Position numbers and translations under genes: made by a program. 64,000 bases of DNA from IMG/VR virus record IMGVR_UViG_3300045988_151219, positions 32,001 through 96,000 of that record; one strand, 5' to 3'. The DNA comes from a virus. The notes under the pieces were generated by a model that was not told where the DNA came from, did not search any database, and was given only the letters and a program-made list of their open reading frames with translations. The first letter of the stretch is position 1, and the number at the start of each line of letters is the position of its first letter. Below, one piece after another: positions 5,162 through 35,900 of the stretch.

Positions 5162-5171
5162 GATTTCCTCC

Positions 5172-5377: not shown

Positions 5378-5382
5378 GTGCT

Positions 5383-5420
5383 TTTATAAAAAATTCTACA
5401 TAAAATTATATGTAGAATTT
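5383..5420 (-). terminator. Rho-independent terminator downstream of 5486-6112
   Basis: 10-bp stem aattctacat (5392-5401) / atgtagaatt (5410-5419). On the minus strand it is followed by TTTTTTATAAAAG. Confidence 0.65.
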
Positions 5421-5485
5421 AAATACTTTATACTATTAACTTACCATGACAGATTTTCTCCTTTAGATAGTATGTAAATACAAGA

Positions 5486-9071: not shown

Positions 9072-9080
9072 AATTAACTC

Positions 9081-13836: not shown

Positions 13837-13841
13837 AGTTA

Positions 13842-14498: not shown

Positions 14499-14958
14499 TC
14501 TGCTGATACTCCAGTATTTGATTAGCTATGTACGTTTTCGGAGAAGAATCTGATACTACTAAGTCAAAAGATTTAGCAATAGAGATAAGCTCAATTAAAG
14601 TCTTCTTCATCAATTTAGATTTTGTAAAGACTTCTTTTTTATTCTCTTCTTTAACTGCTTCCTCTAAACTTTCCGGATTTGCTTCTTCTACCTTATTCTC
14701 TTCTTTTTCAGCTATAACTTCTTCTACTTTATCAGGAACTTCTTTAAATCTCAACTCAACAAAGATTCTGCGATAACGTTTATAGTACAGTTCTTCATCA
14801 CGTGAGATTTCTCCTAAAAAGTAAGAGTGTGCCGGATAGATGTTAATAGAATCTTTATATTCTACAATCTTTCCGTTTATTTCTTTCTTCTTGAAACCGT
14901 ACAAAAATACATTTACTAATGAATAAGAATTGTTGTACAAATAAGCTTGTCTTGACAT
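14476..14958 (-). CDS. Hypothetical protein with K/E-rich centre (160 aa)
   Basis: First gene after the capsid-gene terminator. GGAAGGAG RBS upstream. Confidence 0.6.
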   Translation of the reverse strand: MSRQAYLYNNSYSLVNVFLYGFKKKEINGKIVEYKDSINIYPAHSYFLGEISRDEELYYKRYRRIFVELRFKEVPDKVEEVIAEKEENKVEEANPESLEEAVKEENKKEVFTKSKLMKKTLIELISIAKSFDLVVSDSSPKTYIANQILEYQQNERTGHR

Positions 14959-14997
14959 TATTTTCTCCTTCCTAACACATAAATATATGTTATGTCT

Positions 14998-15008
14998 TAA
15001 GATATAAG
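14998..15008 (-). promoter_or_regulatory. CTTATATCTTA motif (candidate late-promoter element), copy 1
   Basis: Minus-strand CTTATATCTTA lies immediately 3' of the capsid terminator hairpin and 39 nt upstream of ATG 14958. The same 11-mer occurs at 37177-37187. Confidence 0.25.
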
Positions 15009-15040
15009 AAAGCCGCCTCCGTTAATCAGAAGCGGCTTTC
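15008..15040 (-). terminator. Terminator hairpin downstream of the major capsid gene
   Basis: 9-bp GC-rich stem gaaagccgc (15008-15016) / gcggctttc (15032-15040). T-rich on both flanks, so possibly bidirectional. Confidence 0.65.
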
Positions 15041-15082
15041 TTTTTATTATTTTATAACTGTGTGAGCAGTCATAAACTAAGA

Positions 15083-17998: not shown

Positions 17999-20230
17999 TT
18001 AGGTTCTAATTAATCTTTGTTTATATCCCGAATCGTACTTGCGAATTTCGTTGACTGAAAAATGTTTTGTCACTACCCAAATTAATTTATTCTTATTCCG
18101 CCTAATATATGATAAAGAAGTTGATGAATCGTTTCCGAAAAATTCACCGTCAGTAAATACAATTATGCAGTCTGTCTTCTGATTTACTCTTTTCTTTACC
18201 ATCTCTACCGCTGTAGAAAAGTCCGTTCCACCCTGCGGATATTTCGCATAAGCTGCAGCAACTCTACCATACAGACCCCTTAAGGTTGTGTAGTGTTCCC
18301 AATAATAATCTTTGTCAGACGCCCAATATAAAGCTTCGACCTTCAAATTATGTTTGATTATTTTACTTATATTATCTATTTCCGAAATAACTAAACGATA
18401 TTTATTTGCAGACATAGAACCCGAATTATCAAACATTAAAACTATACGTCCTATATAAGATTCATCAGCTGATGAACCAAACGCTCCTTCAAGTCTTCTG
18501 GACGGGTCATTAGGTCTATACTCTTCTTTTACGTTTAAATAATTGGTAAGTAAAGCTCTTAATTTAACTTTCCAATTAGATAAATTCTGATTAACTTTCA
18601 GCGGCTTTTCCATAATAGGTGAAGAAGCCTTCAACGTTTTCTTAGCCTTTGCTAAAGAACTATTTGAGTCTTCATCATCTTTTACAATTCCAGCTTCTTT
18701 TAATTCTCTTAATTCATCTTGGTCTTCTTTACCTTGTTCATTATTTGTATTGTTCAAAATCTTTTCTACTACATCTTTTAAATCTTTTTGTGACATAGCC
18801 GGCATAGATGAATTAGATTTAGACTGTCTAACTAAAATGTTACGCATAGATTTAGGTATAGATGAATTTCCGCCACTTGAAGAGTCACTGCCAGAAGAAC
18901 CACTTTGAGAATCTCCAGCTTGAGAAGTTGTACCCGAACTACCGCTATCTTGCGAATCTCCTTTGTTACCTTTCATATCATTCTGGCTTAAATCTCTTCC
19001 TGTACTTGAAGAGTTTCCACCATTACTACCTTGAGATGAATTATTTCCGTTTTGACTTTGTTGCGAACTTGATGAACCGCCACTCTGTTGATTTTGCTGG
19101 GAATTTCCGCTCTGTTGACGTTGCTGTGAGTTACCACCCTGCTGATTATCTTCCGTATCTACATTGTTACCGTTAGATACTATTTGTTTTTCATTTCCAT
19201 CTTCATCAACCATGGAAATATTATCAGAAAATCTCTTGATAAAATCTAATATTTTATGAGTTACTATTACAGAATTATCTTTATAGTATTCAAGTAATGA
19301 GTTTGAAATAGAAAAATTAACTCCTAAATAGCCGTCAAAGTCAGTCACTTTAGATAAAACATTAGAAGGTAAAGATACTTTTCCATCTAACAGCTGTTTA
19401 AAAGCTTCTCTTAAAATCTTATAGAATTTGTCTTTTGTAAAATCTACTTTACCTAAAGAGAAAAACATGTCATTAGAAACGCCTGTTATCATCGGAGACT
19501 TTAACAAAACTTTTTCTAACGGCAAGTTTATACAAGCATCTTCTACTATATTACATAAAGTATGAGGATATTTTTTAAAAGATTTTTGAAATAAATGTCC
19601 TCTGTAGATGTGGCTCATCTCATGAGCCAGCAAAAGAACTATTGAATTTTTGGCTTCATTTACTATTAAATCAATAGCTCTTTTGTCAGTTAATTTTAAA
19701 TATCTTATATATTCATTGGTAGACTGATAAAGTGCCTGATAAATAATAAATTCCGGATTGTACCAAAGCTCAACGTCTCCTGATAAAGTCCTGGTAACAC
19801 ATAAAGTCGGTATCTTCCTATTTACTTTCTGCGGAATGTGATTAAAGATAATAGCATATTGAGGAAATAAAATATTTAATCTCTTTACAGCAGCATTAAA
19901 CAATTCAACGCCTAACTGCGGATTAACTTTTTTCATTTCCTCTTTTACTATATCAGCAAGCTTTTGTCTTATTTTTAATGTGTCTACATCAGCACTATAA
20001 TTATTAGATAAAGTAGCTTCTTCTTTTGAGCCTTCCGGAGAATAAGCTACTCCTATTGAAAAAGTATTGTCCGGATTTTCTGTGTTAGTATCTTTAGCAA
20101 ATATAAAGTCTATATCTAAAAAGTTCTTCTGTTTTTCAGAAACCAGTTTATTAAGCTCTTGTCCGTCTTTACTAACAAACTTTTCTTTTATATTTTGTAT
20201 ATGTCCTACTATTTCTTTAAAGTTATACAT
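17999..20230 (-). CDS. vWA-domain protein with N-terminal HExxH metallopeptidase-like domain and a ~110-aa S/G/Q/N-rich linker
   Basis: 743 aa. HExxH motif in LLLAHEMSHIYRGH. Low-complexity region at roughly nt 18850-19190. C-terminal vWA MIDAS elements VLMFDNSGSMS, GGTDFSTA and IIVFTDGE. Confidence 0.8.
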   Translation of the reverse strand: MYNFKEIVGHIQNIKEKFVSKDGQELNKLVSEKQKNFLDIDFIFAKDTNTENPDNTFSIGVAYSPEGSKEEATLSNNYSADVDTLKIRQKLADIVKEEMKKVNPQLGVELFNAAVKRLNILFPQYAIIFNHIPQKVNRKIPTLCVTRTLSGDVELWYNPEFIIYQALYQSTNEYIRYLKLTDKRAIDLIVNEAKNSIVLLLAHEMSHIYRGHLFQKSFKKYPHTLCNIVEDACINLPLEKVLLKSPMITGVSNDMFFSLGKVDFTKDKFYKILREAFKQLLDGKVSLPSNVLSKVTDFDGYLGVNFSISNSLLEYYKDNSVIVTHKILDFIKRFSDNISMVDEDGNEKQIVSNGNNVDTEDNQQGGNSQQRQQSGNSQQNQQSGGSSSSQQSQNGNNSSQGSNGGNSSSTGRDLSQNDMKGNKGDSQDSGSSGTTSQAGDSQSGSSGSDSSSGGNSSIPKSMRNILVRQSKSNSSMPAMSQKDLKDVVEKILNNTNNEQGKEDQDELRELKEAGIVKDDEDSNSSLAKAKKTLKASSPIMEKPLKVNQNLSNWKVKLRALLTNYLNVKEEYRPNDPSRRLEGAFGSSADESYIGRIVLMFDNSGSMSANKYRLVISEIDNISKIIKHNLKVEALYWASDKDYYWEHYTTLRGLYGRVAAAYAKYPQGGTDFSTAVEMVKKRVNQKTDCIIVFTDGEFFGNDSSTSLSYIRRNKNKLIWVVTKHFSVNEIRKYDSGYKQRLIRT

Positions 20231-20569: not shown

Positions 20570-23500
20570 TTATTTTGCTCCTTTATTAATATTAGCAGCT
20601 ACTTTAGCTTTGATTTCATCAGAAACTACTACCCCTACACTGTCCATAAGCTCTACCAGTAAGTCTGCTGTATCAAAAGCTTTATTAATAAATTTTCTAA
20701 AATATGTACTGTCTTTTCCTGTATAAAGCATATTAACTTTATATTCATTTGATGGAAGACTATTTAAGAAAGCATAAACAACTTCTCTATCATATTCTGG
20801 GTCTTTATTATCAAAATGGTCAATATACTGTTTAAACAAGCTATTAACAACTGAATATCTCTTTTCAATTACAGGTATAATAGAAATTTCCTGTTCTAAG
20901 AATTTGTTTAATATGTCTATTGATACGCAATCTTCTAAATCATAATGCTCTATTTCTCGGTCAGACACATTATTATAAAACTGTCCGAATTTAGAAGAAG
21001 CATCACTTCCTACAATATAAGTAAAAGCTTCTTTACGGTCACGCATAACTTCAATATCTATCTGTCTTGCAATAACCGCTAATCTCTGGAAAGTCCTATA
21101 AAGAGAATCATCTTCTTTTATACTATCAGAAGTATGAGAAGCTACTAATTCCTGGAGCGTTTCTGCTACTGATTGAGAATCTACCTGCTCCCCACCTAAG
21201 GTAACAGAATAATCCCCTCTGGCACCAGCCCATTTATGAATGTACTTCTTGACTGTATTGTAGACATCTACAAAATCAGTATCTTTTCCCTCTCCTGAAA
21301 TTAAATCAGCTACCTGTCTTTGTGTCTTTTCATCAGGGAACAATACAACTCCTCTAAACATAGAAGTTGATTTAGAGTTCTTTATAAATGTACTTAAGTC
21401 TTCCCACGCTCTGGTAGATGAAGAAGAACATTCTAATGACCGCTTTTCAACTGTATTCATAAAAGCAATAGCATCTTCCGGAGCTAAGTCATTAAAATAT
21501 TTTTGTACTTCCGGAGCAAATTCTGAATCTTTCATATACTTCTGGAAAGATTTTAAATCAAGCTCATCAAATTCAGGTTTCTTTAATACTGAAAATCTTG
21601 CTGAAAATGCAGGGTCAAGAGGTTTAACGTCAGAATAAGCTTCCCCTACGTTACAAGAACCTACAACTTTTACTCTGTCTTTATTGAATTTTATACCTCT
21701 AAATCTGTGGTCTGAAATAACTTCTAAGATAGCACTCATAAGAGTCGTATCAGAAAGTCTATTCATTTCATCAAAATGAATAATAACTTCCTGTCCTACG
21801 TCCGCTGCTTTTCTTAGCTTATAATATAATTCTCCGTCACAAGCTTTTATAGTAGTCTTTTCAGGCAAGTTAAATTCAGACAGCTTAGGCAACTCATTTA
21901 GTTCAGACTCATTTAAATTAAGTCCGCCTAAAATATAACGGGCTACAGATACAGTAGTAGGAATACCCATCAAGTCCAGTCTATCTTGTTCAGCTAAGTT
22001 TACATCTATCAGTAAAGCCTTTCTTTTATTTGCTATTGCTTTTAACCTTGAAGATTTACCCATAGATGAAGCTGTTTCAAGCAGAATAGGTGTATTAGAA
22101 TCAATACCCTGTTCTATAAAATCAGACATAACATCATCAGAAAGTTCAGCTTCTTTATATCCTAATTTAGTCAGATAGTCATAGAAGTTTTCTCCACCTT
22201 CTCCTAAAAGACCCATAAAGATATCTTTCTTAATTACTTTATCGGGATGTTGATAAAGATAGTTTGAAGCCATTTCCCACGTGCGGAAGTTAGGATAAGA
22301 AGTTTCCCCAGCTTTGTCAGTATCCCCTGTATCATTATAAACTTTCTCTACTAAAGAAAAATCATAATACTGTGTTGGGAATTTTTCTAAGTATTCTCTT
22401 ACTACCGGATGAATGTTAGTCCTGTCTCCTTCAGACTTTTCATCTGCCCAGGCTTTCCACGGTTTAATAACATCTTCCGGCAAAATAGGAATAGGTTCAA
22501 AACGGTCATTAAAAGCAGCATCGTCTGAAATTCCTACTTGATATATTGACTGTAAATCTTCTTCTTTTCCTACGGCATAGTTAGAAGCTGCTACAATCTT
22601 AGCATACTTCATAGGGTGACCCATAAATTCCTTGTCCGACAGTATCTTTGTAAAAGCTTGTCTGATAGGTGGATAACATCTCATAAGTTCGTCCAGGAAC
22701 AGAACAGGCGGTTTTGCTCCTTCTTTAAACTTATTCAATATTTTTGTGAGTCTTTCTTTGTCATAGTCTTCTGCGGTTTCTATTTTCTCTTCTATAATAG
22801 GAATAGATTTACGGCAGAAATCTACGTATGAATCTAAGCATTCTATCATAAAAGAAGCAGGAGCTGAATTTGCCACTATCTCTGAAAGGTCCTCTAAATC
22901 TTCTGTATTATTTACTTTAGATAAACCTTGTAAGTCAAGACGTGATAAGAAAGCTAACCGAATATCTACTAAACGATAGCCATACTGGTCAGCTAATTTC
23001 TTAACCATAGCAGATTTAGCTACCCCTGACTGCCCTAAAAGCAAAGGTATTCTATTCTGCGGTTTATCATTTTGAAAATAAACATCAAGTCTACTTACAT
23101 ATGTAGGGGTACCTGATTCTACATTCCCTACACTGTTTTTAAATTCATCATCATCTACTTTGTTAAATAGGTCTTTGAGATTTGCTTCATCAATAGTCAT
23201 AAGTTTCATAGGTTTCCTTTGGATAGATTCATTAATATAATTATTAAAAGGGTGGTCATCAGTTAAAGAGTCTTTGTGATTTAAGCAGAAGTCTAAATAG
23301 TAAGAGTCCGAAACTCCCCCTATTTCCTGTCCGTCTATATCAGAATAGACTACAGTCGTTCCGCTTTCTGCCGTATCTACATATGAGTTTCTTAAAACAT
23401 CGTTATAGTCTACTTCGACTATCATTGCTTTAATTTTCTCCATATGCTTTTTAATCGAATATACGACAAAATCAGGTTCTGTCATTACATAAAAATTAAA

Positions 23501-23683
23501 TGGACGAACCTGATATATAGTTGGTGATTTTATTGAGCTTACTACTGATGAAGTAAACTCATCTGATAGATTGTTAAATTGTGAGGCTTTAGCTGTCAGT
23601 AAAAGATTATTTGTATCAAAGTCTACTACTTTGTTTGATATAACGGGACATTTTTCTAAGAAAGGTAAATAATCTTGTACCAC
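20570..23683 (-). CDS. Large ATPase with two MoxR/dynein-related (AAA_5-like) AAA+ modules
   Basis: 1037 aa. Module 1: Walker A LLLGQSGVAKSAM, ..RLDLQGL, Walker B VLFLDELMR. Module 2: Walker A LETASSMGKSS, ..RLDLMGIP, Walker B IIHFDEMNR. Confidence 0.8.
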   Translation of the reverse strand: MVQDYLPFLEKCPVISNKVVDFDTNNLLLTAKASQFNNLSDEFTSSVVSSIKSPTIYQVRPFNFYVMTEPDFVVYSIKKHMEKIKAMIVEVDYNDVLRNSYVDTAESGTTVVYSDIDGQEIGGVSDSYYLDFCLNHKDSLTDDHPFNNYINESIQRKPMKLMTIDEANLKDLFNKVDDDEFKNSVGNVESGTPTYVSRLDVYFQNDKPQNRIPLLLGQSGVAKSAMVKKLADQYGYRLVDIRLAFLSRLDLQGLSKVNNTEDLEDLSEIVANSAPASFMIECLDSYVDFCRKSIPIIEEKIETAEDYDKERLTKILNKFKEGAKPPVLFLDELMRCYPPIRQAFTKILSDKEFMGHPMKYAKIVAASNYAVGKEEDLQSIYQVGISDDAAFNDRFEPIPILPEDVIKPWKAWADEKSEGDRTNIHPVVREYLEKFPTQYYDFSLVEKVYNDTGDTDKAGETSYPNFRTWEMASNYLYQHPDKVIKKDIFMGLLGEGGENFYDYLTKLGYKEAELSDDVMSDFIEQGIDSNTPILLETASSMGKSSRLKAIANKRKALLIDVNLAEQDRLDLMGIPTTVSVARYILGGLNLNESELNELPKLSEFNLPEKTTIKACDGELYYKLRKAADVGQEVIIHFDEMNRLSDTTLMSAILEVISDHRFRGIKFNKDRVKVVGSCNVGEAYSDVKPLDPAFSARFSVLKKPEFDELDLKSFQKYMKDSEFAPEVQKYFNDLAPEDAIAFMNTVEKRSLECSSSSTRAWEDLSTFIKNSKSTSMFRGVVLFPDEKTQRQVADLISGEGKDTDFVDVYNTVKKYIHKWAGARGDYSVTLGGEQVDSQSVAETLQELVASHTSDSIKEDDSLYRTFQRLAVIARQIDIEVMRDRKEAFTYIVGSDASSKFGQFYNNVSDREIEHYDLEDCVSIDILNKFLEQEISIIPVIEKRYSVVNSLFKQYIDHFDNKDPEYDREVVYAFLNSLPSNEYKVNMLYTGKDSTYFRKFINKAFDTADLLVELMDSVGVVVSDEIKAKVAANINKGAK

Positions 23684-23695: not shown

Positions 23696-24250
23696 TTATT
23701 GCTGTAATAAGTATTTGAATAAATATTTAAAAGCTATTGAAACTTCTGTATCAAACTGCTTACTTAATGATATATTTCTGTTGCTTTCCCAGTCTATATC
23801 CATAAGTTCAAAGATAGGTTTCAGCCGCATATATACTGAAGGTGAATATGAAATCTGATACTGTCCTGAATCTGTTTTATATATACATTTCAACGCAAAT
23901 ACCAGTACTAAAACCTGAAACATTGTTACGACTGTCCGAATAAAAACATAGTCTTTATTCTGGTCATCTAAATAGTCCTGGTCTCCCACTTGCTGGAGTT
24001 CTTTAACCAGTTGCATAAACCTTTGATTCATGAAAATACGGCTCATAGCAGACCCGCCGGCATCTTGATACAGCTTTCTGATGTCTTCGATATCATCGAT
24101 ATCAGGATTATCCATAAGCTCTTTTATTTCATCATTATATTTCCTCAAAAGCGGAAGTACAATAACATCACTCTTCGGTCCAAAAGGTTTTTTAGACAAA
24201 AGCTTTCTAAAATATTTCTGGTAGTAAGTAGAAATCAGCTGTAACTTCAT
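23696..24250 (-). CDS. Hypothetical protein (184 aa)
   Basis: ORF-track entry. No motif recognised. Confidence 0.6.
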   Translation of the reverse strand: MKLQLISTYYQKYFRKLLSKKPFGPKSDVIVLPLLRKYNDEIKELMDNPDIDDIEDIRKLYQDAGGSAMSRIFMNQRFMQLVKELQQVGDQDYLDDQNKDYVFIRTVVTMFQVLVLVFALKCIYKTDSGQYQISYSPSVYMRLKPIFELMDIDWESNRNISLSKQFDTEVSIAFKYLFKYLLQQ

Positions 24251-24278
24251 TGTTTAACCTCTCTTTGAATTAATTTTG

Positions 24279-25283
24279 TCAAATAATTGAAAGTGTAAAA
24301 TATCTCCTTAACAGAATCTGCTTTATAAGTGTTACTAAATTTATAATACGATATTTTTCACTTAGTAAATATTTCTTTCTCCCAAAAGGTTTTACTTCTA
24401 AATAAAAATCCTTTGGCAATAACTTACGTAAACTATCAGGAAGTATTGTTGTTAAATCTAAAAATCCCCTTGTTATTGAGTAAAAAGCTGATTTAGTGGC
24501 AATTCTTCCACCATCTAAAAACGCTATTGCTACTTCTTCTAAATTACTCTCCTTTAAAATTTTGTATGATTTAATATTATCTTTAGCACTATTATTTACT
24601 AAAATATAAAGCTGGTCTTGTTTTGTCGCCTTATATGTTAAGTAAGAAAATTTTCGTACGGGTATTATAGATTTTATAACATAATATATGTCTACCTTCT
24701 CTCCCTTTTTAGGCTTCACATATCTATATAGAATAGTAAGCACAGATTTATATAAATTTACATTCTTAACTAACAAAATTAACTTATCTACAACATTTAA
24801 AATATTGTAATCAACTCCGCTATTTAAAAGCTTCACCATCAACTGAAAAGCGTCTAAGTTTTCTTCTTTTAAGTTAAATAAGTTAAAATCCAAACTAAGT
24901 TTAAAAGCTATCAGTATATCCCTTATATTATTTTTATCGTCTTTAAAGTTTAAATAGTCTTTTAGCTGTTGGTCAGTTCCTACATAAACAGCTACCCCTA
25001 AACTTGGGTCAGTTAAATAAAAATTTCCTGATTTAATTCCATAAAATAACCCAAATAAAACTACATAAGGTTCGTCAACTTTTAACAGTTTAATATTTAA
25101 TTTAACATATTTACTAAAATTGTCAAAAGATACTATATGTAATCCAGTAAATTCTGGAAATATCTTCTGTATTTTAAGTAGATAGTCAGTTTTTTTACTT
25201 ATATCCTTATAAAATTTAATTACAGCCTCTTGACCGTTAATGCAAGAAATATTTAATTTGAAAGTTTTTTCTTGTACATTCAT
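24279..25283 (-). CDS. Paralog-array member 6 (divergent)
   Basis: LFGLFYGIKSGNFYLTDPSLGVAVYV and DAFQLMVKLLNSG correspond to the IFSMYYSPDTNIFYLNDP..AVPI and DSFSLLVQMLTKG blocks of the other members. The C-terminal tail has diverged. Confidence 0.65.
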   Translation of the reverse strand: MNVQEKTFKLNISCINGQEAVIKFYKDISKKTDYLLKIQKIFPEFTGLHIVSFDNFSKYVKLNIKLLKVDEPYVVLFGLFYGIKSGNFYLTDPSLGVAVYVGTDQQLKDYLNFKDDKNNIRDILIAFKLSLDFNLFNLKEENLDAFQLMVKLLNSGVDYNILNVVDKLILLVKNVNLYKSVLTILYRYVKPKKGEKVDIYYVIKSIIPVRKFSYLTYKATKQDQLYILVNNSAKDNIKSYKILKESNLEEVAIAFLDGGRIATKSAFYSITRGFLDLTTILPDSLRKLLPKDFYLEVKPFGRKKYLLSEKYRIINLVTLIKQILLRRYFTLSII

Positions 25284-25319
25284 TGGCAGTACCCTTCTAC
25301 AAACAGTTTATATTTTATA

Positions 25320-26404
25320 TTATACTAATTCTTTCATTAGTCTTTTTGAGATTTTGTTAAATATTACAGAAAATCGTCTACTATTGTGAGTATTATGAAT
25401 AAACTTATTTGCTTGAAACTCATGACCAAAATTAATTTTATTAGGGTCTGTAGGAGATTTTATAGAAGTCGCTTTATTAAAAGTTTCTTCCCCCATTAAA
25501 TCTTTTGCCGGACTTATTAAATCTTGAAAAGTAACTTCTGTCGTTTTTTTCTAAAGAAGGACTTTGTTTAATGAAATATTCTGTTAATTCCACCTTATTT
25601 ACATAATTAAGAATTTTATTATAGTGTTCTGAATCAGAATCATATTGGCTTAACGGAACATCAGAAGAAGCTCGGTATAAATAATATTTACAAGCTGATG
25701 AAGATTCTATAGGAACTATAGTAGAATTTTTATAAAATACTCTTTCTATATCTGAATAAAGGTTTGTTTTTTCCGCATTCAATTTTAAAATCCGTTGAAA
25801 GAAAAACTGAACTTCTATAACTTCTTTAGCTAAATTAAACAGCTTATATACAAAACCATCAACACTACTTGGGTCTGATACACTCTCTACAGAATGACTA
25901 CATAACAAGTCTATTAATAACTCAAAATTATCTACTTCTTTTTCTATTTCTTCATCTTTATTTAAAAAATATTCTATATTTCCTGTTAGCTTATAAGCCA
26001 TAACTTTATTAATAAAATCTTGACTTAAATCTACTCCTAAATAAAGAGATAAATCAGCTAAAGTATTAAACGGAACTGCAATACCAGTCTCCGGTTCAGT
26101 TAAATAAAATATTTCTGTTTCCGGAACATAATACATATTAAACAAATAAATATAATTTACCGTTTTGTTTTTTCATCCCAGTAAAGACAAAATAACTTTT
26201 CATTTTCATCTACTTCAAAGGGAAAGTCGGTAACATTTTCCGCTTTTCTTGTAGTAGATTTAAACAATAATATAAAAAGCATATATATTTACAGTCATTA
26301 TCTCTATTTGAGTTCAGTAATTTATCTATGAAAGTTAATTGTCTTACAAAACTAATTATTCTACGGGATACTTCACCAGTATCCAAAAAATAAAGTTTCT
26401 TCAT
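25320..26404 (-). pseudogene. Paralog-array member 5, disrupted by three frameshifts
   Basis: Track ORFs 26210-26419 and 25477-26145 are fragments. Own three-frame reading gives MKKLYFLDTGEVS... then (shift at plus A5 26274-26278) ..FILLFKSTTRKAENVTDFPFEVDENEKLFCLYWDEK, then (shift at plus T6 26168-26173) ..KTVNYIYLFNMYYVPETEIFY...SPSLEK, then (shift at plus T7 25544-25550) ..TTEVTFQDLISPAKDL...NSRRFSVIFNKISKRLMKELV*. Confidence 0.7.
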
Positions 26405-26405
26405 G

Positions 26406-27440
26406 TTAGGACACCTCATTTAAAACAGATTTAGATATTTTATTAAAAATTACAGAAAATCTTCTATCCAGTAATCCTCTTTTATATAAAAAATTAGTAT
26501 TCATATCAGCATAATCCCCAGCATATTTTTCTTGCCCTGGTTCTATTTCAACCTTATTAAATGAATTTAAAGCTCTTTTACTTATATGAAGCTTTAACGG
26601 CTCTAATAAATCTGCCGCTGATTTTTCCGCCGATTCTATTGACGATGAAGTTTTTATGAAATACTCTTTTAGCTCTTCTTTATTTAATGCTCTATATAAT
26701 GAATTAGACACGTCATTTGTAGTAATATTAATATCCACTACATTATCTAAAGACAATTTCTTTAAATCATCTAACTTATTTGCAAAAATAAACAAATAAG
26801 GAACAAAAGAAGCAGATATACCGTATAATTTTATATTAGTTTGCCAGTCTTCCAGTAAAGAAAAAAATCTTCTTGAATTATTAACTAATAAAGTACAAAC
26901 AAAAACAACATCCAATAAAGTTTTCTTGACTTGATTGATGTCTACCTGGCTCTCTTGTAATGAATTTTGCAAACATGAAATTAAAAGCTGGAAATTATCT
27001 ACGTCTTCATCATCTCCGGTTTCAAAAAAATTTGCTATGTTTCCGGATATTTTATAAGCTAAAGCTTTTTTAAAGAAGTCATTTCTTATCTTAAACTGCA
27101 ACTTTTTTTCAAGAGTCGTTAGAGACAATATAGGAATAGCTCCAACATCTGATTTATTAGCATAAAAAATTTCTGTGTCCGGTGAATAGTACATACCCCA
27201 AAGACATATAAAGTTACGTGGATTTACACAAGTAACAGCTTCTCCTCGTGTTAGGACCCTTATACTATTTTTAGTTAAGTTATGTACTATAAAAAATAAA
27301 GATTTAGTTTTAAAGAAAGCTTCATATCTTTTTATAACCGAATTAACAGCCTTTATAGAATGAAACACATTATCTAAATTCTGTTCATCTGATAGAAAAG
27401 TATCTAAATGAAATTCAAAAAGAGTTTTTTCTACTCCCAT
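26406..27440 (-). CDS. Paralog-array member 4
   Basis: 344 aa with YYSPDTEIFYANKS core. Tail is RRFSVIFNKISKSVLNEVS*. Confidence 0.75.
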   Translation of the reverse strand: MGVEKTLFEFHLDTFLSDEQNLDNVFHSIKAVNSVIKRYEAFFKTKSLFFIVHNLTKNSIRVLTRGEAVTCVNPRNFICLWGMYYSPDTEIFYANKSDVGAIPILSLTTLEKKLQFKIRNDFFKKALAYKISGNIANFFETGDDEDVDNFQLLISCLQNSLQESQVDINQVKKTLLDVVFVCTLLVNNSRRFFSLLEDWQTNIKLYGISASFVPYLFIFANKLDDLKKLSLDNVVDINITTNDVSNSLYRALNKEELKEYFIKTSSSIESAEKSAADLLEPLKLHISKRALNSFNKVEIEPGQEKYAGDYADMNTNFLYKRGLLDRRFSVIFNKISKSVLNEVS

Positions 27441-28442
27441 TTAACTTACCTCTTTAAGTAGTATCTTAGATATTTTATTGAAAATTACTGAAAACTTCTT
27501 ACAATATAATATACTCATTTCTCCATAATACGTTGTATAAAGCTCTTTACTTTGTTTAGCATCCGCTTCTATTTTACTATCGGCTGTATCAAATAAAGAA
27601 AGAGTTCTCTTAGAAACTTTATCTTGGATAGGCTTTAAAAAATCCTTTATTGATTTATCAGCTACATCAAGAGACGGTGAAGTTTTTATAAAATACTCTG
27701 AAAGCTCTTCTTTATTTAAAGCTTTATATAAAGGATTAGTTAAATTAAATTCACTTGTAGTAAATTCATGTTCTACAAAATATGACGGATAATCAAGAGA
27801 AGCTTTTCTAAAATCATCTATATTATCAATACCTAATAGAGTATTTTTCTGAAACGTACATTCTATAGTTTTAAATTCTTCCTCTTCAACATGTTGTGCA
27901 AAATCTTCCATAAAAGCACCAAACGTAAAAAGAAATCTTGTCATTGCATCTGTAAATTTAAGTAACCTATCTTTTATTTCTTTTTTGTCTGTGATAACCT
28001 CAACGTTCATATTCTGTAAAAGATTAACCATTAAAGAGAATGTATCCGATGTTGTATCTTGAATATCAAAAGATAATAAATCATCTATATTACCTGTTAC
28101 TTTATAAAGTAAAACTCTCTCGGTAAAATTTTGATTAATAGGATATTGCAAATATTTACTTAAAGCTTTTAAAGAAACAACAGGTATCGCTATCTTCTCT
28201 GATTTATTAGCATAAAAAATTTCTGTGTCTGGTGAATAATAAGCTCCAAATATCTTTAAAAAATTTTGAGGTCTAATTTCTTCTTCCCAGCTTAAAATTA
28301 CATAATCATCATGGAAATTTTCATATTTAAAAAGATATTCCATATTTAAATCTTTTTTTAGTCTTCTTAGTGGAGAATTTACTATTCTTACTCCACCCTT
28401 TATATCAGAAGTAGGATAATTTACTCGATAAGACCGTTTCAT
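27441..28442 (-). CDS. Paralog-array member 3
   Basis: 333 aa with YYSPDTEIFYANKS core. Tail is KKFSVIFNKISKILLKEVS*. Confidence 0.75.
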   Translation of the reverse strand: MKRSYRVNYPTSDIKGGVRIVNSPLRRLKKDLNMEYLFKYENFHDDYVILSWEEEIRPQNFLKIFGAYYSPDTEIFYANKSEKIAIPVVSLKALSKYLQYPINQNFTERVLLYKVTGNIDDLLSFDIQDTTSDTFSLMVNLLQNMNVEVITDKKEIKDRLLKFTDAMTRFLFTFGAFMEDFAQHVEEEEFKTIECTFQKNTLLGIDNIDDFRKASLDYPSYFVEHEFTTSEFNLTNPLYKALNKEELSEYFIKTSPSLDVADKSIKDFLKPIQDKVSKRTLSLFDTADSKIEADAKQSKELYTTYYGEMSILYCKKFSVIFNKISKILLKEVS

Positions 28443-28443
28443 T

Positions 28444-29460
28444 TTAACTTACCTCTTTAAGCAGTATCTTAGATATTTTGTTGAAAATGACTGAAAACTT
28501 TCGGTCAGTTAATCCTCTGCTATATTTTGCTCGTACTGCATTATAACCTATGTCTCTCTTTTCAACTGCTTTATCGAAAGCCGAAATTGTTCTTCCGCCT
28601 GTCACATCTTTTACAAACTCTAAATGTTCTTTCATTGATTTTTCAGCCACATCAAGTGAAGAAGAAGATAATAAGAAAAAGTCAAATAGTTCTTCTCTAT
28701 TAAAAACTTTATTTTCTACTATGTCTTCTTTATCATAAGTAGAATCTGTACATGAAGAATAAAGATAAGATTTACTATTAAATCTTTTAACAGGCTCCGT
28801 GCAAGATGGACCTAACCAATACTCATAATTAAATAAAAAAGTAAACCTACGTTTTATATTATCTACAAGGACTACAAATTTTTTTAAAATTCTGGTCGCT
28901 TCATTAATATCTACATTAAATATTTCAGAATGATTCTGAAGGAGATTAATTAAAAGCTCGAAATTATCTGTATCCTTAACATCTTTATTTTCATATAAAA
29001 AATAATCCAATTTCCCTGATATTTTAAAGGAAACGGCTCTTTTTACAAAATCATCTGAAATTTTAAAATTTAAAATCCTTTCAAAAGTTTTTAAATTAAT
29101 AAAGGGAATAGCTCCCCCACCTTTAGGGTGATTGAAATAAAATATTTCTGTTTCAGGTGAGTAATATAAGCTAAAAAGTTTTATTGCATTAGTCGGCTTA
29201 ACTATTTCATCCCATTCAAATTTAACAGCTCTAACATTCATATCTTTTCTTTGTATACCTGGTTGAGTTGCCAACGCACTTTCCGGAACATCTTCTAAAT
29301 TAACGATTCTATAAGTAAATAAACAATCACTCTCTGCTATTTGATTTTTTAACTCGTTCCCCCATTTATAAAAAAAGTCACTTAAAAAAGAACTTAAAGT
29401 ATGCCACCAGTTTTCTACATTCACATAATCTGGAAAAAATCCGTATATTTCTCTATGCAT
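28444..29460 (-). CDS. Paralog-array member 2
   Basis: 338 aa with YYSPETEIFYFNHP core. Tail is RKFSVIFNKISKILLKEVS*. Confidence 0.75.
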   Translation of the reverse strand: MHREIYGFFPDYVNVENWWHTLSSFLSDFFYKWGNELKNQIAESDCLFTYRIVNLEDVPESALATQPGIQRKDMNVRAVKFEWDEIVKPTNAIKLFSLYYSPETEIFYFNHPKGGGAIPFINLKTFERILNFKISDDFVKRAVSFKISGKLDYFLYENKDVKDTDNFELLINLLQNHSEIFNVDINEATRILKKFVVLVDNIKRRFTFLFNYEYWLGPSCTEPVKRFNSKSYLYSSCTDSTYDKEDIVENKVFNREELFDFFLLSSSSLDVAEKSMKEHLEFVKDVTGGRTISAFDKAVEKRDIGYNAVRAKYSRGLTDRKFSVIFNKISKILLKEVS

Positions 29461-29464
29461 TTAT

Positions 29465-30571
29465 CTAAGCCCCTCCATTCAAACTTACCTCTTTTAATAG
29501 AGATTTACTTATTTTATTGAAAATTACTGAAAATTTACGATTAAGTAATTCATTCCGTCTATCAAGCTGTCCTAAAGGTTTATCTATAAAAGCATCTATT
29601 TTATCTAAATTAGATTGGTCAGCTGCCTTATTAAAGAAAGAAGCAGCCCTGCTACTTACTCTACTTTTTAACGGTGTAACTAAATCTTTAAAAGCTTTTT
29701 CCGCACTTTCAACAGAATCAGATTTATCTAAATAGTAGTTAGATATTTCTTCCCTATTTACAGCTTTTTGCAAATTTAACAGTTCTTTTTTATCTTTAAA
29801 AGCATATTCCAGTCTATAAATTAAAGTGGAATACGAATAAAGAGTTTTACTTACAGCAGAAAAATTATTACTGTCTACCATCCCTTCTTGTGAAGCTGCA
29901 AAAGAAGGAGCAATTTCTTTATATAAAGAAGTGTTAAATTCATACATATCCAAAGTAGACATGTAAATATGATAGAAATAAACCTGTAAAGCTGATACTA
30001 AATTTACCATCTTATAAAGAAGTTTACTTCTACTTTTTGTATCTAAAGCACTGTTATAACTATCAACACCTTTAGTCAACATTTGCACTAAAAGCGAAAA
30101 AGAATCCGCATCTTGAATTTCAGACTCTTTAAATAAAGTCTCTAAATCTCCGGTAATTTTATATGATAAAGCTCTGTTTTCAAAATCAGTTTCTAAAGGA
30201 AGCTCTAAATACTCCGCTAAAGTTTTTAACTTCATAATCGGCACAGCATAATCATATTTAGGGTCGTTTAAATAAAAAATATTTGTGTCCGGAGAATAGT
30301 ACATACTAAAAATGTAGATACTGTCTTTCGGCTTGACAGTCTCTTCCCATTCCAGTTTTAAAAAACTTAATTCTTCATCAATAGTATCATATGGAAAATC
30401 AGGGTCTTGTTCCGCTTGTTTAAAAGTTAAGAATTTTATGTTAAATAAGAACTCTCCTAAATAAAGGTTCATAGTATTTAAAATGCTTTTAAACAAGTCT
30501 TCAAATTTAGACTTCTTATAAAAAATATTCGATTCTCCAGTACCTAACGATAAATATAAAGTTCTTTTCAT
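29465..30571 (-). CDS. Paralog-array member 1
   Basis: 368 aa with YYSPDTNIFYLNDP core. Tail is RKFSVIFNKISKSLLKEVSLNGGA*. Confidence 0.75.
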   Translation of the reverse strand: MKRTLYLSLGTGESNIFYKKSKFEDLFKSILNTMNLYLGEFLFNIKFLTFKQAEQDPDFPYDTIDEELSFLKLEWEETVKPKDSIYIFSMYYSPDTNIFYLNDPKYDYAVPIMKLKTLAEYLELPLETDFENRALSYKITGDLETLFKESEIQDADSFSLLVQMLTKGVDSYNSALDTKSRSKLLYKMVNLVSALQVYFYHIYMSTLDMYEFNTSLYKEIAPSFAASQEGMVDSNNFSAVSKTLYSYSTLIYRLEYAFKDKKELLNLQKAVNREEISNYYLDKSDSVESAEKAFKDLVTPLKSRVSSRAASFFNKAADQSNLDKIDAFIDKPLGQLDRRNELLNRKFSVIFNKISKSLLKEVSLNGGA

Positions 30572-30588: not shown

Positions 30589-31011
30589 TTAAGTTCCTTT
30601 TACAAATACTGAAACGTCTTTCTTTGAGATTAAAAATGATTGGTCTTCTTCTACTTCAAGACTGTAAATAAAATCATCATAAAAATAATTTGACTTCTTT
30701 ATCAAAACTTTCTGATATATTATACTTTTCTTTCCGTGAGGACTTAATCCAAAAAATTGTTTGGGAAGCTCTTTTAAAGCTTCTATACTATTATTATACG
30801 ATGAAATAAAAAATAGCTGGTTTTCAGTAGCGTAAATTACTTCTTTCCCTATTATCAATTTACCCACTTTATCGTATGAGATAGTCTTCCCGATAACCTC
30901 TCTAACTCTATTTCTATGCGTGTAAACATAGTCTCCTATATTTACTAAATAGATAGGCAGTCTCCCTCTTGATGTTTTAACTAAAGTAGAAGCTGAAAAA
31001 CAGTCTCTCAT
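30589..31011 (-). CDS. Free-standing Hint (intein-like) domain protein, degenerate
   Basis: 140 aa. MRD|CFSASTLVKTSRGRLPIYLVNIGDYVYTH matches intein block A. The block-B position reads TENQ (no His). C-terminus is ..IYSLEVEEDQSFLIS..VSVFVKGT* without a terminal HN. Start overlaps the upstream stop (ATGA). Confidence 0.65.
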   Translation of the reverse strand: MRDCFSASTLVKTSRGRLPIYLVNIGDYVYTHRNRVREVIGKTISYDKVGKLIIGKEVIYATENQLFFISSYNNSIEALKELPKQFFGLSPHGKKSIIYQKVLIKKSNYFYDDFIYSLEVEEDQSFLISKKDVSVFVKGT

Positions 31012-31301
31012 TTAAAATATTCCCCGAATAATTTTTTATGTATATTAAGAACTTCTTCCTGTGAAATCTTTCCCTGTATAAAATCATTTAATGTATTAGC
31101 CTGTATCTTTACATCTAAAATTTCATACATAGATACTGATTGATAAGAAAGCTCTATTAAAGAATGTGTTAAGAATGATGAAAGATACTTGGCTAAAGTT
31201 AAGTCGTTAGGCTGCTCTTTGCCATTAAGAACTTTTCTAAGTCCTATATAGAAAGCTTTAGTCCTCATTGATTTAAAAAATTCCTGCTTAACGTTTACCA
31301 T
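31008..31301 (-). CDS. Hypothetical protein (97 aa)
   Basis: Coupled to portal (1-nt overlap) and to the Hint gene (4-nt overlap). Confidence 0.6.
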   Translation of the reverse strand: MVNVKQEFFKSMRTKAFYIGLRKVLNGKEQPNDLTLAKYLSSFLTHSLIELSYQSVSMYEILDVKIQANTLNDFIQGKISQEEVLNIHKKLFGEYFK

Positions 31302-32929
31302 TACATTTCATCTCCCATCTCTTCTTCAGGAACTCCCTCTTCAAAATCGTCTGATAAATCCTTCTGAATAATAGAAGGTGTTTTTTCTTCTTTAGGCATT
31401 ATATTATCCCATAACTCTTTGAGGTTAAGCATCTTAGCTAAAATATATTCATACAAAGCGTCTTTGTCTATCTTCTTAAAGAACTCTTCATCTTCGGAGA
31501 TAATAGATTTTAAAGTTTGTGCCATAGTCAACGTGTCATTTAATGTAGTTGACCTGTCATTTTCCTCTGCTGAATAAAGTCTCGGAAGTACAATTGTAAA
31601 CTTATTGCAGTCAGCTTCTCGCCCTTGTGTATATAAATAATAATCACACAAAGCTTTAATGCCTACAGCTAAACATGCCTGGCAATGTCTAACCATTCTA
31701 CTATATCTAACGTCTATCTTCAAAAGGCTCTGATTGCCTATTCCGCCTGAAACATCTTCTGCATCTCCTAAATAAGCTTTCGGTATCTTTAAAGCTCCGA
31801 AAAGTTTTGTTCTATAATAATCTAAATCAAGAAGTGCTTTAATATCCATGTCTCCGCCAACAGTGTCTACAGTAACATCACCTTTACCGTTTCGTGTAGG
31901 AACATATATAGACCCACCTAACGGTAACGGCTGGTTGCGACTGGAATACTTCTTTCCTGGAATATCAACAGTTTCTGTTTTAGTAATCGCTTTCTGAAAT
32001 TCCGCTAAAGCAGATTTTACTTTCTTTCTGTCAAAAGCCCCTACTTCTATTTTAAAGATACGATAAAAAGCAGATTTATTAAATCTTGCTACTAATAAAA
32101 TCAGCTCTAAAAGCTCTAAAGTCTCAAAAGCTTCTCGTGCCTGATTTATAAAAGAAGTACCAAATTTAACTTTAAATTCTTTGCTTATTTCAGTAGTTCC
32201 TTTATAGTACCTTAAATTGATTTTATCTCTATGATTTCCTCTATCATTTATGATATGGATATAATCTCTTGTACCGTAAATGACTTTATTCTTATCTTTG
32301 TCTTCTGCTACAAAGCCTACGTTATCTCCATATTCCTGAATATCCTGTACAGCAAGAGGGTCTGTTATTATTTCATATAAATGTCCTCTCTTGACCACCA
32401 GCTTTTCGTCTTGCTCGTCTTTAGGCTTTTCTCTTTCAGCTATGATGTCAGATTCATAAGTCTTTAAAAAGACTTCTCCATAAGCTACAAGATTATAAGC
32501 AATAGGATATAAGTTCTGGTCTATCTTTAAAATGTCATAAAGAAAATGATGTACAGTGTCTATTATATCTTCTTTTTCTTTTTCCGTTCCTGATATATTA
32601 TAAAGATTTCTAATAGACTTGTATTCCTCTAAATTAGGCTCTGCCCAACAAACATGCATACGGTCAAAGTCCATCTGCGTTGCATCTTCTGTTATCATTT
32701 CAATAGCAGAACCTACTACAGAATCATTCATCATATTCTGTAAGTCAGTTATTATATCCTGTCTTGTGTTTGATAACTGTTTTACAGACGAAATAAAACT
32801 TAAAAGATTCTGTACAGATGAACCCTCTATTTCAGATAAAAAAGTTTCTTCTACCTGTAAACCTGAACCTGATTTATTAACAGGTATTAAAGTTTTAAGA
32901 GACTCGTTAATACTCTTGATTATGTCCAC
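31301..32929 (-). CDS. Portal protein (by position and size)
   Basis: 542 aa, immediately downstream of TerL. Size is close to T4 gp20. N-terminus MDIIKSINES resembles the SI..LNE motif. Confidence 0.6.
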   Translation of the reverse strand: MDIIKSINESLKTLIPVNKSGSGLQVEETFLSEIEGSSVQNLLSFISSVKQLSNTRQDIITDLQNMMNDSVVGSAIEMITEDATQMDFDRMHVCWAEPNLEEYKSIRNLYNISGTEKEKEDIIDTVHHFLYDILKIDQNLYPIAYNLVAYGEVFLKTYESDIIAEREKPKDEQDEKLVVKRGHLYEIITDPLAVQDIQEYGDNVGFVAEDKDKNKVIYGTRDYIHIINDRGNHRDKINLRYYKGTTEISKEFKVKFGTSFINQAREAFETLELLELILLVARFNKSAFYRIFKIEVGAFDRKKVKSALAEFQKAITKTETVDIPGKKYSSRNQPLPLGGSIYVPTRNGKGDVTVDTVGGDMDIKALLDLDYYRTKLFGALKIPKAYLGDAEDVSGGIGNQSLLKIDVRYSRMVRHCQACLAVGIKALCDYYLYTQGREADCNKFTIVLPRLYSAEENDRSTTLNDTLTMAQTLKSIISEDEEFFKKIDKDALYEYILAKMLNLKELWDNIMPKEEKTPSIIQKDLSDDFEEGVPEEEMGDEM

Positions 32930-32932: not shown

Positions 32933-35900
32933 TTAATCTCCTTTTATTGCACTGATGTTTGGAATGTCTAAAAGCTCCTGCATTGTAAATCCTTCATCTT
33001 CATCAACATTCATATCTTTGTAAAAATCTAACATTCCTCCTACCGATGACTGTGTAATTCCTGGTGAGGCTGATGAGCCATGCTTAAATGCATTATATAC
33101 AGCACCCACGATTCCGTCACAAACGTCTTTTGAGTTGTGTACTATAATAGAATTATATAACTGGAAGTTGTCTGTCTTCTCCATCTCTATATCATAAACA
33201 GGCATCTTCACTCCATTAAATGATATTTTCTCTATGTCTGTGACTATAATAGGTTCCGGATTATCAGTCAACATAGACATTCCAGCAGATAATTTATCCG
33301 CCCTGATATACTTTAAGTTACTTAACCTGAATAAATGATTGTCTGTTCCTTTTACTACCGAACCGTCAGAAAAAGTTATTTTATATAAGCTGTCTATAAA
33401 TTTAGATATCCAGCATTTTTTCATCTGGCTCTCTACTATAGCTCCTGTCTCCGTTGATGAATAAAGAGTAGCTTTTTTATTCATCAAAGCGTACATAGGA
33501 ACATTTCCTTTTGGTGTCTTTATTAATGTATTACCTAACAAGCAGCCGTCAGAAGGATGGTCTACTTTCCCGCCGTGGTTTTGCCCTGCATCAGGAAAAT
33601 ATAATAAATCAAATAGCTCTTTTTCCTCTGGAGCATATCTATACCCTTTTATTCTTCCTTCATACATGCACTGTATGTAGTATAAATAAGCATCAGCAGT
33701 GCGGTCTACAGATTCAAGTCCTGAAGGTATTCCAGCTTCAGCAAACGCCTGGAGTGAGTACGATGACTGAAATTGGTCTTGTGAAATATACCCATACTCT
33801 ATTCTCCACTTTTCCCGCATATAAAAGATAAAATCAATTATTTTCTGTATAGATATCTTCCTCGGAGCATGCGGAGGTTTTATCTTTAATTTCATATCAA
33901 TAATGATATAAGGTAACTGAACTCCTGATGGCGTAGACTCCCAATGGTCTATATAACACATGCCTATTCCTGTTGAGTCGTTAGTAGTTGACATGTCTAT
34001 ATGCATGTATCTCGGCTTGTCTATATTCCTGGGTCTATATCCCTTTCTAAGAAAATCCCACACCTGTATAGAGTCTCCAGTAGCTACAGATATTTCATCT
34101 TTGTAAAAGGGATGTATTATATTATCAGTACAGCTATCTAAATAAGTAGTCCTGGAGTTAAACAGCTTTCCCATCGGAGCTACAGAAATACCTGCTATAT
34201 CTTGAAGTGACCGTGTTACATTTATTTCAAAAGATTTCCTAAAGTCTTCCGGTATAGCTATAAATTGTTCTTTATCATAGGCATCTAATGACTTGATAGC
34301 TTCTTCTATATTGTCCGTCTTGACTGTGAGTGTCTTATTGACAGATTCTAAATACTGCCTGATATCATTGACTTCTTTTATTATAACGGGGTCTATTAAA
34401 TTAGAACCTTTAAATACATAGAAACATTTGTCTGAATATGTTCCTTTTGGCTTGACTTCCCACAATCTGGCGTTTACTACTTTTGTTTTTGAATCTTTTC
34501 CTTGCAGCAAAGATTCTCTTATTCTCTTGTCTGTAAATGAGGATGTAGATGTGTTAGACGATACTAAAATAGATAACGATGAATCATGACCTTTACTCAT
34601 GAATCGGGAAGCAGACCTATTTACAACGGATGAATACATATCCGCTACTTTACTATAATTCATTGTTGATTTCTGTGTAGACTGTGCGTCTTTCTGAAAG
34701 AAGTTAGCTTCGTCAAGAATAGTACCGATTATATTCATACCGATAGAATTGTGAGTGATTAAAGAGTTACATGTATAAAGCTCTCCTTCAACGGAAGCTC
34801 CGTAACATTCCTGCTCTCCTAAATACTCTATCTTCACGACTGATTCTATCTGTAAAGAATCTTTCATTCCTCTTGGTTGTGAGTCTTTTGTCTTGCACAA
34901 AAAAGCTCCCCTTAATTCCCTGTCTTCCGCCGGAAGTAATTTACAGAATCTTTCATTAGACATATTTTTTAAGAATACAATATATATCAGATATTTACTT
35001 AAATTCTTCTCGTGATATGTTGTCTGGAAACCTAAGCACGACAAGAGATTATGTAAATCCTGTCCTAAACTTGAAGATGAGAAAGTAAAAGAAAATGTCC
35101 GTTTATCTAATTTACCACTCGATAAGAATAATCCATAAAAGAAATAAAACTGCTCTTCAAGCTTTAAATTAACTATTGAGTCAGGAATTACTCTGTCTTT
35201 TCTTTCTTCTGATATTTCAAGCTTCTTCAACAAATTAACTAATTTTAAATCTTGTATAGTAATCTGGCTATAGGCTATTGCTCTGTCTTGTATCTTTGTA
35301 TTTTCCGGTAATATTTCTTTTATATAATCAATATTTTTAGTTAAGAATCTATCTATTATTACTATATTATTTTTATAAACTATTTCTCCAGTTCCTATTA
35401 TCATTCCTAAAAGAGTAAGTAACTTAGGATTAAAGTTTTCTATTTTATGAATAGATTTAAATGATTTAGTAGTTGTGTTCTCGTAACCATTAACTCCGGT
35501 AAACAGTAAGTCTCCGTACTCTAAATGCTGTGTTTCAACAAAACCTCGGTGTGTGTAATGTAAATGATTATCTTTAGTGATGAGCTCTCTTCCTGTGTCT
35601 GTATAAACTTTATACATTTCTCCGGTAGCTTTGTAGGTATATCGTACTTTCTTAAATTCGCTACCGTTATAGACAAAATATTTGTCTGTTAGCTGCTTGG
35701 CTCTTACTATCCCTTTGCTTGTCATAATCATAGAATTAGGGTCTAAGCAGTGTACAGAAGATGAACCATACATAAACATTACATTATCCGGAAATTGCAG
35801 AATAGAATCTAATCTTTCATTTCTCTGAAATCTATCCCTGAAATAAGGTATCTGGTCTATCATTCCTTTAAACTGCCCATACCCTGTTAATTCAGCCTGT

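Follow-up and report, generated by a model that had tools for sequence, protein, structure and literature searches.

Short C-terminal capsid-binding elements are known from several systems, among them the C-terminal helix-turn-helix of P22 gp8 and the C-terminal tail of the HK97 protease. The encapsulin cargo-loading peptide is also C-terminal and, carried on a flexible linker, directs a variety of cargo proteins into the interior of an HK97-fold shell. In bacteriophage T4, a short conserved peptide, the capsid-targeting sequence (CTS), brings accessory proteins into the prohead core, and the heads of phiKZ-like phages contain paralog families of 2-7 and 2-20 members (PMC5694885). The scaffold protein (SP) of 80alpha and CpmB of SaPI1 have in common a C-terminal 'RIIK' motif through which they contact the inner surface of an HK97-fold capsid protein (PMC5644958). 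A pair of genes encoding a MoxR-type AAA+ ATPase and a metallopeptidase-vWA protein has been described in T4-like jumbo phages, with a proposed role in virion assembly (Iyer et al., 2021; PMC7824862), and the archaeal virus ATV needs a MoxR-vWA system to assemble its tail (PMC7824862). Here, we analyse a 64-kb stretch of viral DNA (IMG/VR record IMGVR_UViG_3300045988_151219, positions 32,001 to 96,000; the window), in which six consecutive paralogous genes, labelled c1-c6 in the order of transcription, lie among the head genes of a phage and encode fast-evolving proteins with a nearly invariant C-terminal peptide (the tail), which may serve as a docking element. Contigs of related phages are denoted L001, L006 and so on.

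The array consists of c1 (368 residues; 29465-30571), c2 (338 residues; 28444-29460), c3 (333 residues; 27441-28442), c4 (344 residues; 26406-27440), the pseudogene c5 (25320-26419) and c6 (334 residues; 24279-25283), which is the most divergent copy. All are on the minus strand, and the gaps from c1 to c6 are 4, 1, 0, about 1 and 36 nucleotides (nt). An earlier reading made from the letters alone (the sequence-only reading) had given the same coordinates for c1-c4 and c6, and its proposal that the six neighbours are paralogs holds: in pairs, c1-c4 are 29-38% identical, with values of about 31% for the c5 fragment and 16-20% for c6, the conserved blocks that it quoted are all present in the alignment, and a profile of the six copies finds counterparts in other metagenomes at E-values of 1e-79 to 1e-118. 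The paralogy of the six copies is far beyond chance.

The copies are in different states. In c1, the ancestral stop codon is now TTG, which extends the tail by five residues (LNGGA). The decayed copy reported by the sequence-only reading, c5, is split over three frames (open reading frames, ORFs, of 69, 222 and 76 residues) and contains an in-register stop; it is 86.8% identical at the nucleotide level to an intact ortholog of 366 residues in L001. Its tail, RRFSVIFNKISKRLMKELV followed by a stop, is readable, yet it is out of frame with the body of c5. The window's own phage has two assemblies, made independently, in which the breaks are identical; the decay is therefore genuine and not an assembly error. 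In c6, the loss of one nucleotide near 24351 has truncated the C-terminus; its ancestral tail, IFYTFNYLTKLIQREVKQ and the stop codon, is legible in another frame (24247-24303, minus strand) and is in frame in L001, and the stop codon of the remnant overlaps the ATG of the downstream 184-residue gene. The window phage thus has four complete copies, one pseudogene and one copy without a tail. In L001, whose portal is 99% identical to that of the window, all six genes are intact and in the same order (363, 345, 333, 344, 366 and 345 residues); with synonymous divergence (dS) of 0.1-0.5 between the two phages, orthology is strictly 1:1 and the array is syntenic.

The proteins encoded by c1-c4 terminate in [RK][RK]FSVIFNKISKx[LV]LxEVS, the individual tails being RKFSVIFNKISKSLLKEVS in c1 (29483-29539), RKFSVIFNKISKILLKEVS in c2 (28447-28503), KKFSVIFNKISKILLKEVS in c3 (27444-27500) and RRFSVIFNKISKSVLNEVS in c4 (26409-26465), with that of c5 at 25323-25379, all on the minus strand. 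The sequence-only reading had counted this 19-residue peptide in five of the six genes; four carry it in frame and the fifth instance lies within the pseudogene. The pairing of a conserved C-terminal peptide with strongly diverged middle regions, which it had also pointed out, is borne out by the alignment. A similar correction applies to conservation of the tails at the DNA level. The pair that had been cited, the last 60 nt of c3 and c2 (27441-27500 versus 28444-28503), is indeed identical at 54 of 60 positions, but c2 and c3 are the sole standout pair: their tails match at 51 of 57 nt and have the same codon at 15 of 18 positions with the same amino acid (8.3 expected), whereas the remaining tail pairs match at only 37-45 of 57 nt. 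Over all copies, codon identity at same-amino-acid pairs is 0.55 in the tail and 0.57 in the rest of the genes, compared with 0.47 expected from codon usage. Gene conversion predicts unusually similar synonymous sites, which the tail does not have; selection on the peptide, and not homogenization of the DNA, therefore keeps the tails alike. The recombination-prone junctions and cassette shuffling that had been suggested from the conservation of the gene ends find no support in these codon statistics or in the strict synteny with L001.

The 3' end of each tail has a second function. In the window lineage, the Glu codon of the tail is GAG in every copy that has the next start codon 0-4 nt away (...AAA GAG GTA AGT TAA ATG), although GAG accounts for only 0.24 of the Glu codons genome-wide, and c5 and its ortholog, which are followed by the 36-nt spacer, have GAA instead. 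This distribution identifies GAGG(T) as the Shine-Dalgarno sequence of the following gene: GAGGT at 28451-28455 in c2 serves c3, and that in c3 serves c4. The array is thus translationally coupled, with the last codons of the tail (GAG GTN) doubling as the ribosome-binding site of the next copy. The terminal E-V-S is nevertheless kept in copies without an abutting gene, as in L010d and in the 364-residue copy of L016, which ends in EQVS with a GAA codon; the peptide itself therefore matters there too. A scan for sigma-70 promoters gave promoter-like sites at shuffle level only, no terminator-like match was located between genes and the T4 late-promoter motif TATAAATA was not enriched.

Modelled as a helix, the tail is amphipathic (hydrophobic moment 0.5-0.6, a value reached by 1-3% of shuffled sequences) with a net charge of +3 to +5. 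One face is made of bulky Phe, Ile and Leu residues, and the polar face (S, N, K, S, K) hardly varies from paralog to paralog. A basic amphipathic helix at the C-terminus, as predicted here, is what is seen in capsid-binding helices of the scaffold type, and its position behind a poorly conserved, low-confidence linker fits a docking element. Within the genome, the tail is nearly invariant, polar residues included, in paralogs that over the rest of their length are about 33% identical; from lineage to lineage, it changes (FSVIFNKISKILLKEVS; IQIVFKRIIKALSKAEK; LGKISKYVKEVS; GKIAAILEQVS). Near invariance within a genome combined with drift between lineages suggests that all copies fit one partner from the same genome, and we infer from these sequence patterns that the tail docks every copy onto a single, common phage-encoded partner.

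The remainder of the protein consists of a variable N-terminus, a small α/β domain with a [FW]GxYYSPDTxIFY hairpin and a fast-evolving helical middle region, followed by the linker and the terminal helix. AlphaFold models of c3 and c4, built on nine-sequence alignments, have a common topology: a β-α-β start, hairpins (among them YYSPDTEIFY), a number of helices, stretches of low confidence and a helix at the end. The mean predicted local distance difference test score (pLDDT) is 57.5 for c3 and 51.4 for c4, and only the N-terminal domain of c3 reaches 70-84. A Foldseek comparison of both models with the PDB and BFVD, a check that the sequence-only reading had proposed, gave nothing below an E-value of 0.1.

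Searches of Pfam (at E ≤ 0.1), PHROGs, PADLOC and NCBIfam returned no match for any paralog, and a sequence-profile search of the PDB gave nothing credible, in line with the initial impression that no enzymatic family is recognizable. Among 50,697 phage records, no DNA match to the array and no protein match by tblastn were found; scans of IMG/VR with the family and with the portal were also empty, and portal scans of JGI metagenomes and GTDB gave remote portals at most. A word-indexed profile search of 5.8 billion proteins yielded four matches. An exhaustive search with a hidden Markov model (HMM) against 1.84 billion representatives yielded seven: the six paralog groups and P0008 (E = 9e-7), the single member in L006, whose portal is 74% identical to that of the window and is directly followed by P0008 (tail KIQIVFKRIIKALSKAEK). 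By following portal homologs, three further lineages were reached. In L010, whose portal is 38% identical, at least five members of 380-446 residues stand in tandem; they have CLYIFGLY.NTDTGIIYLN and QRYKLNGD blocks, and LLLLGKISKYVKEVS is an example of their tails. L016 contributes two members, of which one ends in GKIAAILEQVS, and L014 one, detected at E = 5.7e-7 with a profile that excluded it. A 292-residue ORF in L012 aligns at the motif, yet its E-value of 0.05-1.7 is not significant and it was not counted. To judge from these sequence searches, the family is a new orphan that is restricted to a clade of uncultured myoviruses.

Related phages differ in copy number, a comparison that the sequence-only reading had suggested: the family is present in five lineages with 1, 1, 2, at least 5 and 6 copies (L006 and L014, one each; L016, two; L010, at least five; the window and L001, six each). 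In a neighbour-joining tree, the L010 copies are monophyletic in 200 of 200 bootstraps and c1-c5 of the window in 194 of 200, with P0008 and c6 outside both groups. These separate groups indicate that the family was amplified independently in at least two lineages. Two damaged copies in the window and a copy number of between one and six elsewhere mean that the family is dispensable copy by copy.

Measured against L001, the paralogs of the window have a ratio of nonsynonymous to synonymous divergence (dN/dS) of 0.07-0.38 and the flanking genes one of 0.00-0.12 (0.01 for the portal); the dN values of the paralogs are 3-10 times those of the flanking structural genes, with the changes clustered in the N-terminal and middle parts. 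At the greater distance of L006, identity is 80% for the capsid protein, 74% for the portal, 73% for the protease half of its gene, 51% for the AAA+ ATPase, 40% for the vWA protein and 36% for the scaffold-like part, compared with 22-28% for the family and 28-33% for the block's small ORFs. The family thus ranks with the most rapidly evolving parts of the head module, though it is not unique in this respect.

The phage is an uncultured myovirus with T4-type portal, protease and capsid genes and a genome of about 138-145 kb; the nearest named relatives by portal are the Bacillus phages SP-15 and HSE3, at about 30% identity. All of the genes around the array are on the minus strand and the array is tightly packed with the portal-to-capsid genes. 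In the order of transcription, these are a large terminase with inteins (1405 residues; 32933-37150), the T4-type portal protein (31301-32929; Pfam Portal_T4, E = 6.5e-40), a 97-residue ORF that adjoins it (31008-31301), a 140-residue Hint-like ORF (30589-31011), c1-c6, a 184-residue ORF (23696-24250), a MoxR-like AAA+ ATPase of 1037 residues with two ATPase stretches (20570-23683; AAA_5, E = 3.2e-7; PHROG ATPase, E = 3.4e-48), a 110-residue ORF, a protein of 743 residues with an HExxH motif and a C-terminal vWA domain (17999-20230; VWA_2, E = 9.1e-7; DUF2201), an S77 prohead protease fused to a coiled-coil scaffold-like region (16573-17961), the gp23-type major capsid protein (15083-16558; Gp23, E = 2.4e-52) and the neck and tail-sheath genes. 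In the 743-residue protein, the HExxH motif, read from the translation, is HEMSH, and a long low-complexity linker rich in Ser, Gly, Gln and Asn precedes the vWA domain. The array is therefore embedded in a block of head genes, as first described; its placement between portal and prohead protease is true but loose, since the 184-residue ORF, the ATPase, the 110-residue ORF and the HExxH-vWA gene intervene before the protease.

The 1037-residue and 743-residue neighbours have the make-up of the phage MoxR and metallopeptidase-vWA pair, and the L014 ortholog of the ATPase gives a faint bpMoxR match. The pair accompanies the family in the window, L001, L006, L014 and L016, that is, in all four family lineages whose DNA extends that far; the stretch of L010 covered here (contig ERZ1305919 NODE_25, 160 kb) stops short of this region. 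In L016, a family gene lies directly upstream of the AAA+ gene, and in L014 and the window one small ORF stands between them. L017 and L018, with a single gene between portal and protease, have neither the pair nor the family, and the same is true of SP-15 and HSE3, which have ribonucleotide reductase genes in this interval. This association of the family with the phage MoxR and metallopeptidase-vWA pair has hitherto gone unnoticed, and the co-occurrence makes the pair a second candidate partner for the tail.

We propose, with a probability of about 0.45, that the family comprises accessory prohead proteins docked through their common C-terminal basic amphipathic helix and possibly acting as clients of the MoxR-vWA chaperone. 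The tail would dock all copies onto one partner encoded by the phage. A first candidate for this partner is the prohead interior, either the scaffold core or the inner face of the capsid protein; a second is the adjacent AAA+ and metallopeptidase-vWA pair, which might load or process the proteins during head assembly. The two are compatible, as a chaperone could load the proteins into proheads. Translation of the copies is coupled through the Shine-Dalgarno sequence that overlaps the tail codons, and repeated amplification would be expected of dosage-sensitive or diversifying accessory head proteins. The suggestion of the sequence-only reading that these proteins are cargo inside the capsid is plausible but unproven.

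A number of observations weigh against this proposal. Homology searches tie no member of the family to virion proteins, and the AlphaFold models are of low confidence, so that no fold assignment was drawn from them. A tail profile built from the window lineage alone is not significant on the distant tails (best E = 0.48), a profile that includes those tails being circular for detecting them, and in the distant lineages the tails are similar in a qualitative sense only. Neither the tail nor the N-terminus is flanked by a conserved candidate protease site; counts of [ILV]xE candidate sites in the paralogs were uninformative. Genomic position is also weak evidence, because non-structural genes occur in the portal-to-capsid interval: in L010, a Dam methylase and a dCMP deaminase lie between the portal and the array, and SP-15 and HSE3 have their ribonucleotide reductase within it. 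Rhizobium phages have a homolog of the AAA+ ATPase that is not located among their head genes.

A bolder version, which we consider rather unlikely, is that the tail is a transferable capsid-loading tag that, with the help of the MoxR-vWA pair, packs diversifying, amplified effectors into a T4-type head for delivery to the host. In both versions, docking and presence in the prohead are things that we infer, as is any function after ejection.

Alternatively, the family could be clients or adaptors of the MoxR-like AAA+/vWA machine in a role outside the capsid, such as host takeover or counter-defence, with the extreme C-terminus (...EVS-COOH) recognized by the pore of the ATPase or by the vWA metal site. 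The family adjoins the pair and co-occurs with it phyletically, the ATPase homolog in Rhizobium phages belongs to no head module, the ...VS end is kept where no downstream gene abuts, and raised dN/dS with repeated amplification would suit an arms race. However, the block is within the portal-protease-capsid cluster and on the same strand in every lineage seen, the sole published proposal for this type of ATPase/vWA pair is virion assembly (PMC7824862), and neither PADLOC nor any other defence-related match was obtained. We regard this alternative as unlikely.

The tail might instead be a membrane-targeting amphipathic helix of the MinD/FtsA type that would hold the proteins at the cytoplasmic membrane, for instance where T4-type proheads initiate. 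T4-type prohead assembly begins on the membrane, and the amphipathic helix predicted for the window family is cationic, stands at the very C-terminus after a low-confidence linker and has its bulky Phe, Ile and Leu residues on one face. On the other hand, the residues of the polar face are nearly invariant among the paralogs while the whole motif drifts between lineages, which favours co-evolution with a phage-encoded protein partner over generic lipid binding. We regard a membrane tether as a live but improbable alternative. That the conserved 3' ends are DNA-level elements is hardly credible, since the close match of the c2 and c3 tails, the one point in its favour, is partly Shine-Dalgarno sequence, the synonymous sites of the remaining pairs are randomized to the level of codon usage, the array has no direct DNA match in the 50,697 phage records, and gene conversion and cassette shuffling are essentially excluded by the codon statistics together with the 1:1 orthology and gene order shared with L001.

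Several features of the neighbourhood are recorded here in their own right. The small ORF between c6 and the AAA+ gene, encodes 184 residues in the window and ends in a hydrophobic helix (IAFKYLFKYLLQQ and the stop codon) that the tail profile matches weakly (E = 0.06); L006, L014 and L016 also have a small ORF at this position. Between the two family members of L016 lie two ORFs of about 180 residues (8345-9496), whose relation to the 184-residue ORF is positional only. The Hint-like ORF matches Pfam Hint_2 at E = 1.9e-4, under the curated cut-off, and has a counterpart of 137 residues in L006. Between the window and L001, its protein is 100% identical, with one synonymous change (dS = 0.01); dS is 0.3-0.5 in the neighbouring genes, which suggests that this segment was exchanged recently. 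The 97-residue ORF next to the portal bears the motif LSS.ITHSLIE, and a small ORF with this motif is found just 3' of the portal in most of the relatives examined, immediately after it in L012 (104 residues), L014 (138 residues) and L018 (149 residues) and one gene further in L006 (96 residues) and L010 (98 residues).

The inteins of the terminase are indicated by Pfam Intein_splicing and LAGLIDADG_3 matches on the identical gene of L001 and L003. A clamp-loader ORF of 720 residues (43755-45917, minus strand) has about 430 additional N-terminal residues with a weak terminase PHROG match, which may be another intein or insertion. In L010, the dCMP deaminase between the portal and the paralog array (13862-14728) contains a Hint/intein-like insert, and several fragmentary N6/N4 methyltransferase ORFs lie 5' of the terminase (2977-5555). 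The coiled-coil region fused to the protease in L006 (gene 13835-15277) contains repeated (I/V)NES motifs, and PIYE|AADPT is conserved at the N-terminus of the capsid protein; these are candidate sites for T4 gp21-type cleavage at [ILV]xE.

As a docking tag, the tail would offer a compact C-terminal handle of 17-19 residues for loading T4-type capsids, of use in capsid engineering in the same way as the T4 CTS, and the family would supply the first candidate substrates for the phage MoxR-vWA pair, whose role in virion assembly is so far a proposal. Were the capsid-loading version to hold, the tag would do at the C-terminus what the T4 CTS does at the N-terminus, and phage MoxR-vWA chaperones would have their first known client family. 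Two independent amplifications, together with ongoing decay of copies in a third lineage, offer a natural experiment on dosage versus diversification. Should the proteins be absent from the virion, the family would be one more fast-evolving phage orphan.

The MoxR and metallopeptidase-vWA pair of 'group 2.2' jumbo phages resembles the window neighbours in that these have the described architecture and are conserved beside the family. The differences are that the genome size found here is not that of a jumbo phage, that the ATPase of the window has two ATPase stretches in its 1037 residues and that the pair has no described client family. Encapsulin systems have in common with the window family a C-terminal docking peptide behind a linker. 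The tail motif, however, differs from the encapsulin consensus, there is no encapsulin shell gene and the shell would be a gp23-type phage capsid, and the presumptive cargo consists of paralogs of a single family and not of diverse proteins.

The scaffold motif of 80alpha and SaPI1 is likewise short, basic and hydrophobic, lies near the C-terminus and can be shared by different proteins; the tail of P0008 reads FKRIIKALSK where the window tails read NKISKILLK. This is no more than a resemblance, and the window phage already has a scaffold-like region fused to its protease.

The nearest functional precedents are the T4 internal proteins and the head paralogs of phiKZ-like phages, although the family belongs to neither, the tag being at the opposite end and homology being absent. 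Families A and B of SPN3US and the inner-body proteins of phiKZ are, like the window family, head-gene paralogs with a copy number that varies between related phages (here from one to six). The phiKZ inner-body family (PF12699) was not matched at E ≤ 0.1, nor was there a Foldseek match in BFVD at E < 0.1; the giant-phage proteins carry long N-terminal propeptides where the window family has a C-terminal tail, and their presence in the virion is established, that of the window family being a proposal. IPI, IPII, IPIII and Alt of T4 offer the closest parallel in organization: several accessory proteins, individually dispensable and fast-evolving, are encoded with the head genes and have one short peptide in common. 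The T4 CTS, however, is N-terminal, comprises 10-20 residues and is removed at L/I-x-E, whereas the N-termini are the most variable part of the window family and show no such sequence. No sequence similarity to the T4 internal proteins was found (Pfam, PHROG and NCBIfam; tblastn of the 50,697 phage records), and the window paralogs, unlike the T4 proteins, are homologous over their full length and not only in the tag.

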